A DNA stretch of 64,000 bases from Promethearchaeota archaeon (GCA_048940765.1 JBHLOG010000001.1:6806-70805), one strand, 5' to 3'; numbered from the stretch's first letter, positions 4,183-43,129 are shown. Notes: generated by a model from the letters alone, not told the origin. Program-made: numbers and translations.

Positions 4183-4776
4183 TTAAAGAGTTGACAAAAA
4201 TGCTGCGACATTTTCGCTTGAATCTTCATCCACTAAGGCATCTTCGAGTTCTTCTCCTATAAATTCATATTTATAAACACATCTTTCGTTGCCTAATAAA
4301 ACACATTCAATTTCTTCTGCCGCAACATCAATTTGAAGCATTTCGAACATGCCACTAAAAATGCCTTGATAAAGTAAGCATAAGTTTTTTGCCATAATAT
4401 TATCTTTTTCTTCAGCTGCGAGGGGATCTGATACCGCAATTAAGATATGATCTTTTTTAAAGACGCATCTTAATTCTCCATAACCCATGAGTTCTAGAGC
4501 TTCAAGATGGCCAAAGACGACTTCTTTTTTTGTAGCCATAGTTTCTGGAAGCCAGTCTTTATTATGGAAAAATTTATCCATATAACTCCTCCCGAGCGTT
4601 TTTCCTACCCAGATTAATATGTCATCAGCGTTTGTACCTGCAAATTCGGAGAATTCAATCAAATCTATGGGTCTTAACATTAGTAAACGTAAATCCTTCT
4701 TTTTATCACCAAAAAACAATTGTCCTAATTTCTCATCGATCATTACTTGTAATTCTTTTTTAAGTCTCTTAGACAT
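4183..4776 (-). CDS. V4R (4-vinyl reductase / Bet3-TRAPP-like) domain protein
   Basis: C-terminal V4R pattern NLCLLYQGIFSGMFEML...EEIECVLLGNERCVYKYEF (C..G..G...E.C...G..C). Confidence 0.7.
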   Translation of the reverse strand: MSKRLKKELQVMIDEKLGQLFFGDKKKDLRLLMLRPIDLIEFSEFAGTNADDILIWVGKTLGRSYMDKFFHNKDWLPETMATKKEVVFGHLEALELMGYGELRCVFKKDHILIAVSDPLAAEEKDNIMAKNLCLLYQGIFSGMFEMLQIDVAAEEIECVLLGNERCVYKYEFIGEELEDALVDEDSSENVAAFLSTL

Positions 4777-6112: not shown

Positions 6113-7525
6113 TTATTCTTCTTCTTTTTCTTCTTCAATTTTATCTGGAATTTCTTCTTTTACTTCATCAGTTGGTTCTTCTTCCTTCTTTTCACTAGAT
6201 TCAGAGATAATTTCTTCAGAAGGTTTTGATTCAGGCTCAGCTCCGACGGGAGTTTCACAAATGGGGCATCTATTCCATCCAGGTCGTAAGCTATACCCAC
6301 ATTTTGCACACTCTTTCAAACTATCATCTTCTTTCCATTCCGGAATATCTAACCCCCCTTGTCTCTTTCTTGCTAATTCTTCTAATTCCTCTTCAGTCCA
6401 AACTTCCATTCCTTCGGGTAAGCCTGTTCCTCTTTCTGCGGAAAACTTTAAGAGTTCTTCTTCACTCCAAGAGGGTATATCTGACTGAGAAGTCATTCGT
6501 TTCTGTGCTTCTTCTGCCAATTCTTCAGCTGTCCATGTTTTGAGTTCTTGTCCACCAGGAGTTCTTACTGAGCTTGATACTTGAGTTTGTGGTTGTGCAC
6601 TAGTTGGAGGTTGTTGCGTTGGGATATTACAGCATTCAGCTGAAAATCTTAGTAGTGCTTCAAAACACCTAGAGTATTTATTTGGATCTTTCCCTTCGTC
6701 TGTGACTAGAATTAAAGTAGTTTGATCAGTAGTTTGTGGTATCGCTATGCTATATACAGCAATATCAGATGAAATTCGAGTTGATTCTAAACCTGAAGTA
6801 ATTCTTTCCATTGAGTTCATTAGTTCATTATCTTTCATTAAAAAATCACAAATAGGATCACCATGTCTCTGATATGCCTCATGATATTTTGCTAAATGAT
6901 TTTTTGTAATTGTAGAATCCAGTGAATTAATTATTGCTTCTATATAAGAAAAGATTTGAGACTTTGGACCTGCTTGCGACTCATCCAGTTTATAACCTCC
7001 TAAATCAACAACTCCCATAACCGGAGCAAATAATGGTTTTTCATTTTTCATTTTTCCAAAAAGAGTAGGTCTTGAAATAAGACACTTAACTTCTCCGTAA
7101 TAAGCTATTGAATTATCTAATAACTCTACTTTCTTGTCAAAAATTGTACGTGGAACGGATCGAAATATAACATCGACCCAGGGCATTTCTTTTACAGGAA
7201 TTATTGCAACACATAATTTTTCTATATATTCGCGTAGTTTTTTATTATAATTTTTTAATTCTTTTTTAATATCATCATATTGTTCATTTTTTAATTCTTC
7301 AGTTATCTTATTTTCAAGTTCTTTGAATTTTTCTTCATTTATTTTAAGATTCCCTCCAAATGATTTTATATCTCCAACAATATTATCTTTCATAATAGAA
7401 GTTGCACTTTCAATAGTTTTTTTCTGAAACTCGGTAAGTTCTTGTTCTTCACTAGAGACTAAAAAATCAGAGGGATTAAATTCAATCTTATTAATAAAAA
7501 CATCAAAAAGCTTCTTTTCTGACAA
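6113..7525 (-). CDS. hypothetical protein with P/Q-rich linker, three W-[TS]-x-EEL repeats, a C-terminal zinc ribbon and an acidic tail
   Basis: WTAEEL, WSEEEL and WTEEEL repeats. CAKCGYSLRPGWNRCPIC zinc ribbon. E/K-rich C-terminus. Confidence 0.6.
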   Translation of the reverse strand: MSEKKLFDVFINKIEFNPSDFLVSSEEQELTEFQKKTIESATSIMKDNIVGDIKSFGGNLKINEEKFKELENKITEELKNEQYDDIKKELKNYNKKLREYIEKLCVAIIPVKEMPWVDVIFRSVPRTIFDKKVELLDNSIAYYGEVKCLISRPTLFGKMKNEKPLFAPVMGVVDLGGYKLDESQAGPKSQIFSYIEAIINSLDSTITKNHLAKYHEAYQRHGDPICDFLMKDNELMNSMERITSGLESTRISSDIAVYSIAIPQTTDQTTLILVTDEGKDPNKYSRCFEALLRFSAECCNIPTQQPPTSAQPQTQVSSSVRTPGGQELKTWTAEELAEEAQKRMTSQSDIPSWSEEELLKFSAERGTGLPEGMEVWTEEELEELARKRQGGLDIPEWKEDDSLKECAKCGYSLRPGWNRCPICETPVGAEPESKPSEEIISESSEKKEEEPTDEVKEEIPDKIEEEKEEE

Positions 7526-7684
7526 TTCCTTTACCTTTATATCCTAAATTATTTTGAATAAAAGATATTTATAATTATACAAATAGAATGGATATAAAAA
7601 TTTATTTGAATTAAATATAATTTATAAGAAATAAGGATAAACGCATAAACATTTTTATTAAAAAAATTATAAGAATTTTAATCT

Positions 7685-9963: not shown

Positions 9964-10343
9964 AATAAATTGAAAGAAGAGAATTTTATTTAATTTAATT
10001 TTTACTTAAACAATTGATTATTTGAATTGAAAATTTGTTTAAGAATATATAAATAAATAAAAAAATTTTATATAATTTCCTAATATTGTTAGATTATTTT
10101 AACCTAAATTTGAATTAAGATAGAAATATTTTAACCACTTTTAATACTAATTAAAAGTTTTAAAATATCATTAAATTTGAGGAATTCAGCAATATTTTAA
10201 AAATTAATGTATTAATATTCATTTTGGAAGTGGAAAGAGATGACAAAACAGTATTACTTTAAATATGTTAATCCGATAAAAATAAACATTTATATATTAA
10301 TGTGTAATAAAATATCTTATAATAAAAATTGTGGTTTAAGGCG

Positions 10344-25491: not shown

Positions 25492-26574
25492 ATGTTGAAT
25501 ATTATGAGTCCATTCAAATTATCTTCTAAAGTGAAGAAAGGGTTAGGAAAAATTAATCGAAAAAACAACAACTTGAATTATTCTTTACAGCCCTTTGTTA
25601 AGAAATGGTTAAAGGGGCACCCACCTAGATTAACCTATTCATTAAAGCCACAGGAAATGAGTTTTGAATCATGGAGTCAACAAGTTAGAGAATTAATCAT
25701 TAAAAAGATACCAACTTTAAAACCGTTACCTCTTGAGGAACAACAGTTAATAATACATGGGGAAACAAATTCAAATGGAATTAAATTTATACAATTTTCC
25801 TTAATGGCAATTCCAGGATTAAGAGTACCGGCAATAATGTGTATTCCCGACCATATTGATCATAAAATACCTGCTTGTATTTGCATACATGGACATAACC
25901 AAAGTATTTATAATTCTGTTGGAATTAAAAAGTCCAAAAATGAAGAATATTTTGGATATGAGCTAGCTAAGTTAGGATTAATAACTCTTTCTTTTGATTG
26001 GATTGGAAGTGGGGTTCGAGAATCTTTTAAAAATAAGTTCCTTTTTTTTCTTAAGGATGAGGGGCAAAGAACTAATTGGTTGCGTTTCATAGGATTGGAT
26101 ATGTTAGGTTTACGTATAACTGAAGTAAAAGCATTGATTAATTATTTAGAAAATCAAGATGAAGTAGATCCTAAAAGAATAGGAATAATTGGTCATTCAG
26201 GAGGAGGAACCCTTTCTTTATTTGCCACATTTTTTGATGAGAGAATTAAAGTATGTGTTACTTCAGGATACTTTAGTACATGGGATCATTCTATTCTTGC
26301 TATGTATCATTGTGGTTGTAATTATATTGCGGATTTAAGAAAATATCTTGAATTATATGATATATATTCATCTCTAGCTCCATGTCCTTTAGCGATTACA
26401 ATAGGGAAAAAAGATAAGATTTTTCCCTATGAAGGTACTAAAATATCTATCCCAATAATCGAAAAAGCTTATCAGGAGGCTGGTCATTCAGAGAACTTAT
26501 TAATCCATATACAAAATAAAGGTCATAGATTTAGTGGAGAAAAGATATATCCATTCATTCTAAGCAATCTATAA
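25492..26574 (+). CDS. alpha/beta hydrolase (acetyl-xylan-esterase / dienelactone-hydrolase-like)
   Basis: GxSxG elbow IGHSGGG and a C-terminal His (NKGHRF). Starts 2 nt after the preceding gene. Confidence 0.65.
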   Translation: MLNIMSPFKLSSKVKKGLGKINRKNNNLNYSLQPFVKKWLKGHPPRLTYSLKPQEMSFESWSQQVRELIIKKIPTLKPLPLEEQQLIIHGETNSNGIKFIQFSLMAIPGLRVPAIMCIPDHIDHKIPACICIHGHNQSIYNSVGIKKSKNEEYFGYELAKLGLITLSFDWIGSGVRESFKNKFLFFLKDEGQRTNWLRFIGLDMLGLRITEVKALINYLENQDEVDPKRIGIIGHSGGGTLSLFATFFDERIKVCVTSGYFSTWDHSILAMYHCGCNYIADLRKYLELYDIYSSLAPCPLAITIGKKDKIFPYEGTKISIPIIEKAYQEAGHSENLLIHIQNKGHRFSGEKIYPFILSNL

Positions 26575-26683
26575 TTTTTTTTTACTAAAAACTCATACAG
26601 AATAAATAGTTATTAAAAATTATTGATTTCATATTTTATTGATGTATAACAATTAAAAATCTAAAAAAAAAGAAAAAAATTAG

Positions 26684-28087
26684 TTAAAGTTGAGATTCAT
26701 CAATTACAGGCATTTCTTCTGAAGCTAAGTTTTTTTGAATTTCACTATTAGGCAATTCGTATTCTTTTAAATTTCCGTTCATAAATTCTTCGTAAGCTAA
26801 CAAATCAAAAAAACCATGACCACTAAAGTTAAATAAGATGACTTTCTTTTCATTGTTTTCTTTAGCTTTCAATGCTTGTTCAATCGTTTCTTTTATTGCA
26901 TGTGCAGTTTCTGGAGCAGGAAGTATTCCTTCAGCTTTTGCAAATTGGAGTCCAGCACTAATTACTTCTGTTTGATGATGCATAGTAGTTTTAACAATTC
27001 CATTATTATTTAAAATTGAAATAATGGGAGCCATTCCATGATATCTTAATCCTCCTGCATGGATTGGGCTGGGGATAAAAGTATGTCCTAAAGTATGCAT
27101 CTTCACAATAGGTCCTTTCATTGCAGAGTCACCGTAATCCCATCTATACTCTCCTTTTGTTACACTTGGACATGCTCGAGGTTCCACACCAATTAATTCC
27201 ATATCTGGATTTGTTCCGTCTAATTTATCTTTGACAAATGGAATCATCAAACCAGCAAAGTTCGAACCGCCTCCAATACAGCCAATTACTACATCTGCTT
27301 TTTCAATACCAGCTTTAGCTAGTTGAATTTTTGCCTCTTGTCCTACAATAGTTTGATGTAAAAGCACGAAATTAACTACACTTCCAAGAGAATATTTTAT
27401 TCTATCACTCCTCATACTATGTTCTAATGCTTCAGATATTGCAATTCCTAAACTCCCTGGATGTTCTTGATCTTTCTCCAAAAATTTTTTTCCAGAATCA
27501 GTTAGATTGGAAGGACTTGGATACACTTCAGCATTAAAAGCCCTCATTAAGATTTTTCTCCCTGGTTTTTGAAAATAGCTTGCTCTTACCATATATACAG
27601 TACATTTTAGATCATAGAGACTACATCCATATGCTAAGGCAGAACCCCATTGCCCAGCCCCTGTTTCTGTGACTAATTCTTCTGTTCCTTCTTTTTTTGC
27701 ATAATATGCTTGGGTTATAGCAGTATTAGGTTTATGTGACCCCGTAGGAGAACATGATTCATTTTTATAAAAAATTTTAATTTTATCTCCTTCTATATCT
27801 AACTCTTTCTCTAATCCCAATGCTCGATGAAGTGGACTCGGTCGATAAGTTTTTGCAAAAATTTCCCTTAATTCCTTTGGAATAGGAATAAGAGGTTCCA
27901 ATGAGACTTCTTGCATTACACATTCTCTAGGAAAAATAGCAAATGCCATTTCCGGTGGAGCCGGTTTTCCATCAATTGGATTTATTAAGGGCGTCATAGG
28001 GGAGGGTAAATCTGGCAAAATATTTACCCAATTTTTTGGAATCTCATTTGGTTCCAGTAAAATTCTTCCAGTAAAATGATCTACCAT
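26684..28087 (-). CDS. trpB2: TrpB2-type tryptophan synthase beta-like PLP enzyme (stand-alone)
   Basis: EIPKNWVNILPDLP N-terminus, PLP-lysine motif PTGSHKPNTA, GGGSNFAG glycine loop, 467 aa. No trpA nearby. Confidence 0.85.
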   Translation of the reverse strand: MVDHFTGRILLEPNEIPKNWVNILPDLPSPMTPLINPIDGKPAPPEMAFAIFPRECVMQEVSLEPLIPIPKELREIFAKTYRPSPLHRALGLEKELDIEGDKIKIFYKNESCSPTGSHKPNTAITQAYYAKKEGTEELVTETGAGQWGSALAYGCSLYDLKCTVYMVRASYFQKPGRKILMRAFNAEVYPSPSNLTDSGKKFLEKDQEHPGSLGIAISEALEHSMRSDRIKYSLGSVVNFVLLHQTIVGQEAKIQLAKAGIEKADVVIGCIGGGSNFAGLMIPFVKDKLDGTNPDMELIGVEPRACPSVTKGEYRWDYGDSAMKGPIVKMHTLGHTFIPSPIHAGGLRYHGMAPIISILNNNGIVKTTMHHQTEVISAGLQFAKAEGILPAPETAHAIKETIEQALKAKENNEKKVILFNFSGHGFFDLLAYEEFMNGNLKEYELPNSEIQKNLASEEMPVIDESQL

Positions 28088-29324: not shown

Positions 29325-30956
29325 TTATTTCTTTGCAAATGGTTCAAGGTCTATGGCTTCAAATATGTCATCTACCCCTTCAATAGTTCCTAAAAAGTGC
29401 CATTCCCCTTCTTCAACATTCTGACCTGACGCGTATCTCGAAGCCATATTGTATAATCTATTAAAGTTCTCATAATGTAAGGCGACTCGGTTTTCAGCGT
29501 AATCTCGTGCGGACCATGTTGTCATTAAGAATGGCCAATCGGAACTTTCTAACAGTAAAAGTTCTCGTGCCATCTGCTTTAAAATCTTAATAATGTTTGG
29601 ATCGTGCGAGCCCTTGTATTTTGCAATAATCTCTTCGCTCTTCGCTTCGCATTCGTAAATTCGCTCCCAAACCCACGTTGTCCACTCATTAAACCACACC
29701 CAGTGAGAACTTGCTTGACCCCATGAGCCTTCTATTACACTTACTACTTTATTCGGAGGATTAGATTCAACATATAGCCTTGAATTCGTTAATTCTACCT
29801 CTGGATCATCTTCAAGCCATCGAAGTACCCTTGCTAACCACCAATTTCCCTCAAACCACCAATGTCCAAATAATTCTGCATCATAAGGAGCTACAACAAT
29901 GCCGTTTCTCCCATTTCTATTTTGAAAATCTCTTAGAATATCTTTAATGAGATTTACATAATGACTTGCATTTTCATCTAGTTTACCAGGTATATCATCT
30001 GGCCAATATAACATCTTTTTACCGAGGTCGAGTTTTGCTTCTGTGACTTTCCAATATCTCAAGCCCCCAGGATAATGTTTTTTATGAAAGTCCAAGTATT
30101 CAGCACATCCTGGATATCCATGTTCTCCGCTCCATACTACAATCCCTGTTTTCTCATCGCGAGTAAAAAATCCAACAGGTCCAGGAGTAGAGGGATCAGT
30201 AGACACTAAATATGATTCATATTGAGACTTTTCGAATGAAGTTGGGATTTCTTCATATTGAGATTCAAATTGCTTCCATAGTTCAGCAAGTAAAGGAAAT
30301 CGGGCAGCATAGACACCTTGAGATTTTCCTCCTAAAAGTAAAGCAGTGTCAATAAAGAAGTATTTTAACCCATTTTTAGCAAGAAAGTATTCAATACCAG
30401 GACGATGATATTCTTCATCAGTTATAGGGTTTTTCCATCGATACCCTGGTCTATATGCACATTCAGGAAGCCAAGCACCTGTAGGAGTTCTACCGAAATG
30501 TCTTTTATAATTATCAACTGCCGTTTTAAATTGAGCATCAATTGAAGTATCCTTGGAAAGTAAGGGTGCATATCCATGAGTTGCTCCACATGTAATAATA
30601 TCAACAAGGTCCATATCCTGAAGATTTTTAAACGCTCCCACTACATCCCTATTATACCTATGAATAAAGTTATCTCTTACCCGTTCATAGAATTCTTGCC
30701 ACCATTTCGTTAATTTAATTCTCCCTTCTTCATATCTATTCCTTGTAAATTCTTCAAAATCATGTAGCGCCGCGTTATGTTTGTCCTCTAAATAACCTAA
30801 AAATCCCCCCGTAAATTTAGGATTTCGAAGCATTTCACATAAAATTGGAGTGAGACCAATAGTAAGTTTTGGATGATATCCGTCATCAACTAATTTATAT
30901 AATTCTATAAGAAGCGGAATATATGTTTCTGCAGCTGCTTCATTCACCCAATCCAT
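29325..30956 (-). CDS. GH57-family alpha-glucan branching-enzyme-like protein, main body (lacks the first conserved region)
   Basis: DWVNEAAAETYIPLL..., GATHGYAPLL and WLPECAY motifs typical of GH57 GlgB-like enzymes. Confidence 0.8.
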   Translation of the reverse strand: MDWVNEAAAETYIPLLIELYKLVDDGYHPKLTIGLTPILCEMLRNPKFTGGFLGYLEDKHNAALHDFEEFTRNRYEEGRIKLTKWWQEFYERVRDNFIHRYNRDVVGAFKNLQDMDLVDIITCGATHGYAPLLSKDTSIDAQFKTAVDNYKRHFGRTPTGAWLPECAYRPGYRWKNPITDEEYHRPGIEYFLAKNGLKYFFIDTALLLGGKSQGVYAARFPLLAELWKQFESQYEEIPTSFEKSQYESYLVSTDPSTPGPVGFFTRDEKTGIVVWSGEHGYPGCAEYLDFHKKHYPGGLRYWKVTEAKLDLGKKMLYWPDDIPGKLDENASHYVNLIKDILRDFQNRNGRNGIVVAPYDAELFGHWWFEGNWWLARVLRWLEDDPEVELTNSRLYVESNPPNKVVSVIEGSWGQASSHWVWFNEWTTWVWERIYECEAKSEEIIAKYKGSHDPNIIKILKQMARELLLLESSDWPFLMTTWSARDYAENRVALHYENFNRLYNMASRYASGQNVEEGEWHFLGTIEGVDDIFEAIDLEPFAKK

Positions 30957-30968
30957 TCCATGGGGCCA

Positions 30969-31001
30969 AATTTCGGATAATATGATAAATTCATATTATT
31001 C
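30969..31001 (-). other. 33-nt in-frame insertion (E-stop-YEFIILSEI) containing a 9-bp hairpin, between HG and WPHG of GH57
   Basis: Plus-strand ataatatga (30977-30985), loop taaat, tcatattat (30991-30999). GH57 homologs as I recall them have about 1 residue here (HGKWPFG). Confidence 0.6.
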
Positions 31002-31070
31002 TCCGTGACCAAGCACCCATGGTAAGTGTGAGTGTAATACTAAATTAAAAGATCCTAATATATCAGTCAT
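30996..31070 (-). CDS. detached N-terminal fragment of the GH57 gene (MTDILGSFNLVLHSHLPWVLGHGE-stop)
   Basis: Carries GH57 conserved region 1 (HSHLP). Same frame as the main ORF, separated from it by TAA at 30996-30998. Confidence 0.7.
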   Translation of the reverse strand: MTDILGSFNLVLHSHLPWVLGHGE

Positions 31071-31262
31071 ATTTTTTCCTAAGTTAAATATAATATTATT
31101 TATTACAAAATTCGTTATTATTCAATAATTATTCATATCTTAAATATTCAAGAGAATCCTAAAATATTTGAAAATCGTTAAAGTTATATATCTTTATTTA
31201 GCTTTTTATCATATATATTTTCCAATCAAAAATTAATTGTAAATTCAAAAAAGTAAGATTAG

Positions 31263-42532: not shown

Positions 42533-43129
42533 GTGATGAACCAAGAAAACAATAAACAACTCTCTCTTGAAGATATTGAAGTACCAGATAAAATCCCTGC
42601 AAAATTTATAAACAATCGAGTTATTGTTTTCAACCCATTGTATGCTTCATATTTATATGTGAAGAAAGGGTTCTTTGGCTCACCTTTAGGAATTAATAAA
42701 CCCAGATTAGAATACTTTTCTAAACCAAGCGAGCTATCATTAATCGAAGCTTATTATTTACTAGAAAAGGACGAATTAACAATTTTTGATGTAAATGACA
42801 AGAAAAATTTAACACCTAAGGAATTTTATGAGATCGCTAAAAAAAATCATCATAAATTTGAAGAAAAATATGTTATATACAAAGATTTAAGGGATAGAGG
42901 ATACATTCCAAGACCAGGATTAAAATTTGGGGCAGACTTTGTTGTGTATCGTCTTGGTCCGGGACTTGAACATTCTCTTTTTATGGTCCATGTTCTACCT
43001 CATGACTCAGAGATCTCAGCTGTAGACATGGTAAGGGCTGGGCGATTAGCAACATCTGTGAGAAAGAAATTTGTAATCGCCAATCCTCTTACCTGTAGCT
43101 ATTATTTCTTTGAGTGGTTCAAACCATAA
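42533..43129 (+). CDS. endA: tRNA-splicing (BHB) endonuclease
   Basis: YKDLRDRGYIPRPGLKFGADFVVY...HSLFMVHVL catalytic-domain signature. About 198 aa (homotetramer-type size). ATG at 42536 is the likely start. Confidence 0.85.
   Translation: MMNQENNKQLSLEDIEVPDKIPAKFINNRVIVFNPLYASYLYVKKGFFGSPLGINKPRLEYFSKPSELSLIEAYYLLEKDELTIFDVNDKKNLTPKEFYEIAKKNHHKFEEKYVIYKDLRDRGYIPRPGLKFGADFVVYRLGPGLEHSLFMVHVLPHDSEISAVDMVRAGRLATSVRKKFVIANPLTCSYYFFEWFKP

Follow-up and report, generated by a model that had tools for sequence, protein, structure and literature searches.

A predicted 30-nucleotide bulge-helix-bulge intron in the GH57 branching-enzyme gene of a Promethearchaeota archaeon, and similar mini-introns in other protein genes and a tRNA gene

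The GH57 1,4-alpha-glucan branching-enzyme gene of the window (the whole stretch of 64,000 nucleotides that was analysed) is interrupted after codon 23 by a hairpin that contains a TAA stop codon, and this insert is very probably a relaxed bulge-helix-bulge (BHB) intron that would be spliced by EndA and RtcB. Three explanations had been offered in the first-pass annotation: the scar of an insertion that made the gene a pseudogene, a two-piece enzyme, and an excised RNA element. The last is favoured over the other two because the insert recurs in seven species with covariation, because the gene is under purifying selection, and because the same architecture is found in other protein genes and in a tRNA gene. 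Comparison of these genes places the GH57 intron in a family of 29-30-nt mini-introns that, in this Promethearchaeota (Lokiarchaeia) lineage, interrupt genes for tRNAs as well as for proteins. The locations of the features are listed in Table 1.

The host is a metagenome-assembled genome (MAG) of 4.04 Mb with 29% G+C, the relatives of which are labelled Promethearchaeota or Promethearchaeia, labels that correspond to Lokiarchaeia-type Asgard archaea. Translated on the minus strand from ATG 31070, the gene reads MTDILGSFNLVLHSHLPWVLGHG, then E-stop-YEFIILSE, I and WPHGMDWVNEAAAE, and is open downstream to 29325; translation of the region thus bears out the original reading, in which the TAA (30998-30996, minus strand) was in frame. 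The first of these segments is encoded by exon 1 and includes GH57 conserved region 1 (HSHLP), and the downstream ORF is recognised by the Pfam models Glyco_hydro_57 and BE_C. Removal of 30 nt moves the beginning of the GH57 match to profile position 2, compared with position 20 before, and gives a spliced product of 571 aa; the orthologues are 570-580 aa long and uninterrupted. The junction codon G/UU (slashes in codons and protein motifs mark splice junctions throughout) encodes valine to give HGVWPHGMDW, and intron-less orthologues read HGVWPHG or HGIWPHG. The insert had been described as a stop-bearing hairpin of 33 nt; it is a stop-bearing hairpin, but its length is 30 nt relative to the orthologues. 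Similarly, eleven codons were correctly counted between HG and WP, but one of the eleven (Ile/Val) is the protein's own and not part of the insert. A search of the insert region against Rfam found no matching family. A more distant GH57 paralogue, with 40% identity, is encoded on C174 of the same genome.

Table 1. Locations of the interrupted gene, its predicted intron, similar introns and EndA genes; coordinates are window positions unless a genome or contig is named.
Feature	Location	Strand	Basis or remarks
GH57 1,4-alpha-glucan branching-enzyme gene, pre-mRNA form	29325..31070	-	Pfam and orthologue comparison
Exon 1 (ATG to GGA G; 23 codons + 1 nt)	31001..31070	-	conserved across all orthologues
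Predicted BHB intron, 30 nt, AAUAAUAUGAAUUUAUCAUAUUAUCCGAAA	30971..31000	-	exact absence in 76 of 83 orthologues
Exon 2 (UU UGG CCC CAU GGA to stop codon)	29325..30970	-	orthologue comparison
Central helix H, 5' strand (exon ACGG)	31003..31006	-	pairs with CCGA, 3 of 4; covariation
Bulge B1 (AGA); predicted 5' cut between 31001 and 31000	31000..31002	-	geometry
Intron hairpin h', 9 bp + 5-nt loop AUUUA	30977..30999	-	pairing and covariation
Central helix H, 3' strand (intron CCGA)	30973..30976	-	pairing table
Bulge B2 (AAU); predicted 3' cut between 30971 and 30970	30970..30972	-	geometry, rnhB register
EndA paralogue, 198 aa, putative catalytic subunit	42533..43129	+	PF01974, 103 bits
Second EndA paralogue, 205 aa	C115, about 26500-27100		PF01974, 74 bits
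tRNA D-loop intron, 30 nt	own genome, C190:7422-7451	+	tRNA gene about 7405-7533; R2 match 7416-7452
RNase HII (rnhB) intron, 30 nt, splits catalytic DEAG/RG	own genome, C40:55100-55129	+	structural script
UppS intron, 30 nt, in-frame TAG, splits DG/NRRWA	own genome, C228:21974-22003	+	structural script
Thioredoxin introns, 30 nt, just before WCGPC	L043 (G071:C164:13499-13535), L056 (G062), L057 (G084)		
Adenylate kinase P-loop introns, 30 nt, GAG/KGT	L045 (G041:C13:31846-31882), L046 (G103:C135:4-40)		
aIF5A intron, 29 nt, hypusine loop GKHGHA/K	L079, G056:C13 about 10201-10238	minus of locus	

The branching-enzyme gene was found in 83 of the 135 family genomes searched. It is uninterrupted in 76 of the 83, where it reads HG(I/V)WPHG, and the other seven genes, from seven species, contain extra DNA of exactly 30 nt with one TAA each. 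Six of the seven inserts occupy the same site, five of them in this genus (G000, which is this genome, G028, G063, G081 and G095) and one in another genus (G049); that of G102 lies 15 nt further downstream, where it follows the motif's second CAYGGA (WPHG/MDW), at what will be called site B. The seven align without gaps, with 18-28 of 30 bases in common, and from their sequences are clearly homologous. The site-B insert is identical to that of this genome at 27 of 30 bases, including the entire 23-nt hairpin, and comparison of the two sites indicates that the intron has moved within the gene one or more times. The carrier MAGs derive from several independent studies, which rules out an artefact of assembly. 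Intron-bearing genes are dispersed over the gene tree, each next to an intron-less sister (support is 100/98 for the gene of this genome with that of G056, and 100/100 for G049 with G005), a distribution that requires either repeated loss or repeated gain.

Inactivation of the gene by a small palindromic DNA insertion that left a functionless element behind would fit the in-frame TAA and a downstream ORF without conserved region 1, and the distant paralogue on C174 could in principle compensate. The insert nevertheless persists in seven species with compensatory changes, exon 1 is fully conserved upstream of the stop, and the remainder of the gene has no further defect. The dN/dS ratio of intron-bearing genes is 0.03-0.10 (first 660 nt), similar to that of intron-less pairs, and is 0.057 (dS about 0.96) between two genes that both carry the intron; ratios as low as these indicate that the gene is not decaying. 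Similar inserts are present in the genes of adenylate kinase, aIF5A, RNase HII and UppS, and it is unlikely that all of these are pseudogenes. Inactivation of the GH57 gene is accordingly regarded as highly improbable.

A BHB motif is defined by two 3-nt bulges on opposite strands with a 4-bp helix between them and at least one flanking helix (hBHBh', HBh' or hBH). No canonical BHB motif could be drawn in the first-pass annotation, but a relaxed form can be: exon bases ACGG pair with intron bases CCGA at three of four positions, with the 3-nt bulges AGA and AAU on either side. The perfect 9-bp hairpin (AUAAUAUGA, loop AUUUA, UCAUAUUAU; 30999-30977), its CGG/CCG extension across the AGA bulge and the flanking copies of CCAUGG are all present as previously noted. 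The 91-nt region folds at -31.1 kcal/mol, compared with -19.7 +/- 2.8 kcal/mol for shuffled sequences (z = -4.1), and none of 200 shuffles folded as low. When the proposed structure is laid over the seven GH57 copies, 81.5% of cells are paired and five pairs have changed on both sides; the covariation score of 0.224 (0.120 when shuffled) was reached by none of 500 shuffles, and pairing falls to 32-48% when the partners are slid. For the hairpin alone, 90.5% of cells are paired and three pairs have changed on both sides. The pair between exon position -4 and intron position 28 covaries, being C-G in five genomes and U-A in two. These observations make a moderate case, drawn from seven related sequences only, that compensatory changes maintain the structure.

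The central helix of the GH57 intron is the weakest of the family, with three of four pairs in this genome and two of four in four other copies; its outer pair is never formed (A.A or A.G) and its inner pair is G.A in four of the seven copies. In the sister introns of adk, rnhB, aIF5A and the tRNA, all four pairs of the central helix are formed. No outer exon helix is found directly beside the GH57 bulges, and the minimum-energy fold is a register slipped by 1 nt (CGGA/UCCG pairing with a GAA bulge), in which canonical cuts would excise 28 nt and disrupt the reading frame. About 5,800 of the approximately 8 million positions of a whole-genome scan (roughly 7e-4) pass structural thresholds set at 8 of 9 pairs or better for the hairpin and 3 of 4 or better for the central helix. 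Relaxed BHB-like shapes are frequent by chance (10.64898/2026.10.13.758758), so the case rests on the comparison between genomes and not on the shape. Five structural scans that filtered on stem, helix, stop and ORF detected the GH57, rnhB and uppS introns among an overwhelming number of false positives; control lengths of 28, 29, 31 and 32 nt yielded as many matches or more, and a filter on codon usage lost the true positives.

Cleavage of a canonical BHB motif occurs after the second base of each bulge. Applied to the GH57 insert, this rule removes 1 + 23 + 4 + 2 = 30 nt (window 31000-30971) and yields HGVWPHG; the cut register of bulges B1 and B2 was taken from rnhB, and that of B1 also from the site-B GH57 intron. 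Among 14 rnhB introns, the last two bases of the intron differ (AA, AU, AG or GU) but exon 2 begins with A or G in all of them, so that AG/R always encodes the arginine of the motif; a register shifted by one base would yield Lys, Ile, Arg or Val. At site B of G102, the rule gives GGA A/UG GAU and restores the methionine of WPHGMDW, which is present in every genus-g1 orthologue examined, whereas the shifted register gives valine. In the aIF5A insert of G056, the central helix (UGCA/UGCA) is perfect and the hairpin is shorter by one base, and the gene is out of frame unless spliced; the rule takes out 29 nt, and the resulting join, GCA AA/A GUC, encodes GKHGHAKVRVVCV, which is identical to the aIF5A encoded without an intron in this genome (C130:33939-34313). 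Canonical cuts restore the conserved motif in every host tested. Exact-pattern scans of metagenome contigs for the spliced GH57 junction and for a degenerate rnhB junction found no match.

The same codons bear on the possibility that the enzyme is made in two pieces, a 24-residue N-terminal peptide and the product of a 543-aa ORF from ATG 30956, which would assemble into an active enzyme. The downstream ORF does begin with ATG (MDWVNE...) and holds most of the GH57 and BE_C domains, but this ATG is merely the codon of the conserved methionine of WPHGMDW. In G049 the codon specifies threonine, so that there is no start codon, and in G102 the intron is situated at that very codon, where methionine arises only by splicing. 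Assembly from two pieces would also leave the covarying hairpin, the exact 30 nt and the other host genes unexplained, and is extremely unlikely.

Translational recoding is another way in which a stop and a hairpin within an ORF could still give one protein, as in phage T4 gene 60: the ribosome might hop over the hairpin, or read through the stop and leave a tolerated 10-residue loop in the enzyme. Bypassing of the gene 60 type acts at the ribosome and requires matched take-off and landing codons. GGA codons are found 30 nt apart at the borders of the insert in G028, G081 and G063, the GAA-TAA...GAA of this genome could represent take-off and landing codons, and a stable hairpin lies downstream of the putative take-off site. 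However, matched GGA codons occur in only three of the seven GH57 copies and are not conserved; G049, G095 and G102 have no matched take-off and landing codons, and the stop of G049 lies eight codons into the insert. The would-be insert peptides are mutually unrelated, and substitutions track RNA pairing rather than codon positions. The 29-nt length of the aIF5A insert is not a multiple of three, which makes read-through impossible there and excludes a tolerated loop for that member of the family, and the identical architecture is found in a tRNA gene, where translation is irrelevant. There is very little likelihood that the GH57 gene is recoded in either manner.

Inserts of the same architecture were sought with two covariance models: R1, made from the GH57 inserts alone and applied to 54 genomes of the genus, and R2, made from mRNA inserts only. 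The GH57 insert scores 60.1 bits with R1 and 55.1 bits with R2, scores that are not independent, since it was a training sequence of both. The top matches of R1 outside GH57 are 30-nt in-frame stop-bearing inserts in thioredoxin (VYTE/WCGPCK) and in the P-loop of adenylate kinase (GPPGAG/KGT); R2 added thioredoxin copies and the UppS intron copies of relatives, and a structure-based script found the inserts in the RNase HII and UppS genes of this genome. At least 14 genomes of the genus carry the rnhB insert, whose central H helix covaries too; G096 lacks it. The uppS insert is present in at least six genomes (this genome, G056, G072, G035, G070 and G089) and absent from at least three (G077, G079 and G061). 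Once spliced, the four products match their Pfam models along the full length (RNase_HII 1-199 of 199, Prenyltransf 1-219 of 219, ADK and Thioredoxin). A joined query of four proteins served for rnhB, uppS and trx and was ambiguous for adk, in which the first exon has 15 codons; the adk gene of this genome (C141:6956-7342) is free of stops across the part that was matched, beginning about 5 codons before the start codon.

The family has a common design, in which four exon bases pair with four intron bases, after which come a bulge of 3 nt that is A-rich in most cases, a hairpin of some 23 nt and a closing bulge, also of 3 nt. The hairpins are often topped by GA-AUUUM-UC, and the top GA-AUUUA-UC is common to the GH57, thioredoxin, aIF5A and tRNA D-loop introns. 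The pairing table of all hosts was made by script from ungapped 37-mers, MAFFT having misaligned the rnhB intron with gaps. Five other model matches (L060, L062, L063, L065 and L066) have no in-frame stop or a weak central helix, and were rejected as ordinary coding sequence. It had also been proposed that MITE-like copies of the GH57 insert might exist elsewhere in the genome, which was not upheld by a blastn-short search of the 4.04-Mb assembly: the GH57 copy was found, with no near-identical others, and matches of 19-21 nt on C262, C232 and C151 were dismissed as further copies because they look like chance.

Two MvhD/VhuD-like ORFs (GADGV...GxC..GN), on C139 (+) at about 22466 and on C29 (-) at about 4412-4428, have TGA at the position of an expected cysteine. 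They were considered as intron candidates and set aside as more likely selenoproteins; the TGA codons are probably selenocysteine codons and not introns.

The tRNA gene on C190, matched by R2, contains its insert in the D-loop, and the site reads CUAG CUA AUUCUAAGA AUUUA UCUUUGAAU CUGG AAU, which matches the GH57 insert in geometry and in loop. ARAGORN recognises a normal tRNA cloverleaf only after removal of the 30 nt, places a second intron in the anticodon arm, and calls the tRNA Gln under one treatment of the introns and Phe under another. The match of a model made from mRNA inserts to this site indicates that a bona fide tRNA intron is built like the GH57 insert. ARAGORN found 27 tRNA genes in the assembly, 18 of them with introns, and many multiply interrupted tRNA genes were probably missed; Asgard tRNA genes have been described in a preprint as heavily interrupted (10.64898/2026.10.13.758758). 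An SSU rRNA match was sought in the MAG and none was found.

The genome encodes both of the enzymes to which splicing is attributed. The endA gene reported earlier in the window is confirmed, a second EndA paralogue is encoded on C115, and the RtcB gene is located on contig C40 (566 bits). A histidine of the catalytic region is found in the window EndA only and is missing from the C115 paralogue; the sequences suggest that the former is the catalytic alpha subunit and the latter the structural beta subunit. [quoted passage not shown]

Splicing of the GH57 transcript is predicted to proceed as follows. Exon bases ACGG and intron bases CCGA would make up a short central helix, with the bulges AGA and AAU at its two ends, one on each strand, and the 9-bp hairpin as its cap. 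The two-subunit EndA, of which the window gene (42533-43129) would supply one subunit acting on the intron in trans, would cleave after the second base of each bulge, at G31001 and A30971, and RtcB would ligate the exons at the junction ...CACGGAG/UUUGGCCCC... to encode ...HLPWVLGHG-V-WPHGMDW... within the full-length enzyme of 571 aa. Translation of mRNA that remained unspliced would end at the TAA after 24 residues. From the comparison between genomes and the presence of the enzyme genes, we infer that excision by EndA and RtcB takes place in vivo.

The 30 nt might instead be removed precisely by another route, either by a nuclease other than EndA that acts on the hairpin or by DNA-level excision in part of the population. 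Consistent with such a route, the BHB motif of GH57 is relaxed and differs from the minimum-energy fold, the conserved GA-AUUUA-UC loop is a candidate binding site for a protein unrelated to EndA, and every intron-bearing gene has an intron-less sister gene. Yet the canonical BHB rule predicts the right junction in all hosts tested, including the 29-nt case, the same design is found as a tRNA intron, the EndA and RtcB genes are present, and no recombinase-type signals or target duplications are seen beyond the pseudo-symmetry of the BHB motif. Removal by another route is considered unlikely, and BHB splicing by EndA and RtcB remains the preferred explanation.

The nearest known system is the BHB intron in the cbf5 pre-mRNA of Crenarchaeota (Desulfurococcales and Sulfolobales), the splicing of which was shown experimentally (Watanabe 2002; Yokobori 2009, PMC2738675). 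In the literature searched, crenarchaeal cbf5 is the only confirmed case of BHB splicing of a protein-coding mRNA (PMC2738675), and no published report of BHB introns in Asgard protein genes was found. The cbf5 and GH57 introns are alike in being short, ORF-less and inside protein-coding sequence, in occurring in lineages with a hetero-oligomeric EndA of broad specificity, and in having a patchy distribution that implies gain and loss. The GH57 intron is different in its host, a branching-enzyme gene of Promethearchaeota (Asgard), in its membership of a family of 29-30-nt hairpins present in several protein genes and a tRNA gene, and in its occurrence at two sites of one gene; and whereas the splicing of cbf5 was established by experiment, that of GH57 is predicted from sequence. 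The two represent the same class of mechanism but not the same intron.

Archaeal tRNA introns resemble the GH57 intron in BHB geometry, length class and enzymes, and repeated gain is indicated for both; the D-loop intron of this genome shares with it the 9-bp stem, the 5-nt AUUUA loop and the A-rich bulges. Unlike tRNA introns, the GH57 intron is hosted by an mRNA, from which its removal must keep the reading frame, and conserved codons (CAY GGA), not tRNA stems, supply its exon half-motif. HAC1/XBP1 splicing of eukaryotes is also similar in that a very short intron within coding sequence, marked by RNA stem-loops, is removed by an endonuclease and an RNA ligase (RtcB in metazoa) and that its removal alters which protein is made. 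The XBP1 intron is 26 nt in length and is excised in the cytoplasm through cleavage by IRE1 and ligation of the RtcB type. The differences are that IRE1 is not EndA/TSEN, that its substrate consists of twin stem-loops rather than a BHB motif, and that HAC1/XBP1 splicing is a regulated stress response.

What the present analysis adds is the predicted intron of a metabolic gene in an Asgard archaeon, a family of introns common to protein and tRNA genes, and a change of position within one gene. A broader proposal, to which about even chances are given, is that Promethearchaeota (Lokiarchaeia) carry mobile, ORF-less mini-introns of about 30 nt that are common to tRNA genes and many protein genes, that settle at the most conserved codons, with an exon half-motif such as YGG-N-A, and that spread or relocate by reverse splicing or gene conversion. 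If the family is mobile, the 15-nt jump between the two CAYGGA sites of the GH57 gene may have been one mobility event, and two insertion sites within one gene offer a concrete handle on intron movement.

Introns of the same build interrupt the catalytic motifs of RNase HII, UppS, thioredoxin, adenylate kinase and aIF5A in this genus. Gene callers will label such genes as truncated or as pseudogenes, and metabolic reconstructions from Asgard MAGs will be biased as a result. Introns in coding sequence are tolerated, and seemingly propagated, by the lineage nearest to eukaryotes; their removal by an endonuclease and RtcB would resemble XBP1/HAC1 splicing. If the introns do constitute a mobile family, endonuclease-type splicing of mRNA would be routine among the archaea most closely related to eukaryotes, and might also be a step at which genes are regulated.
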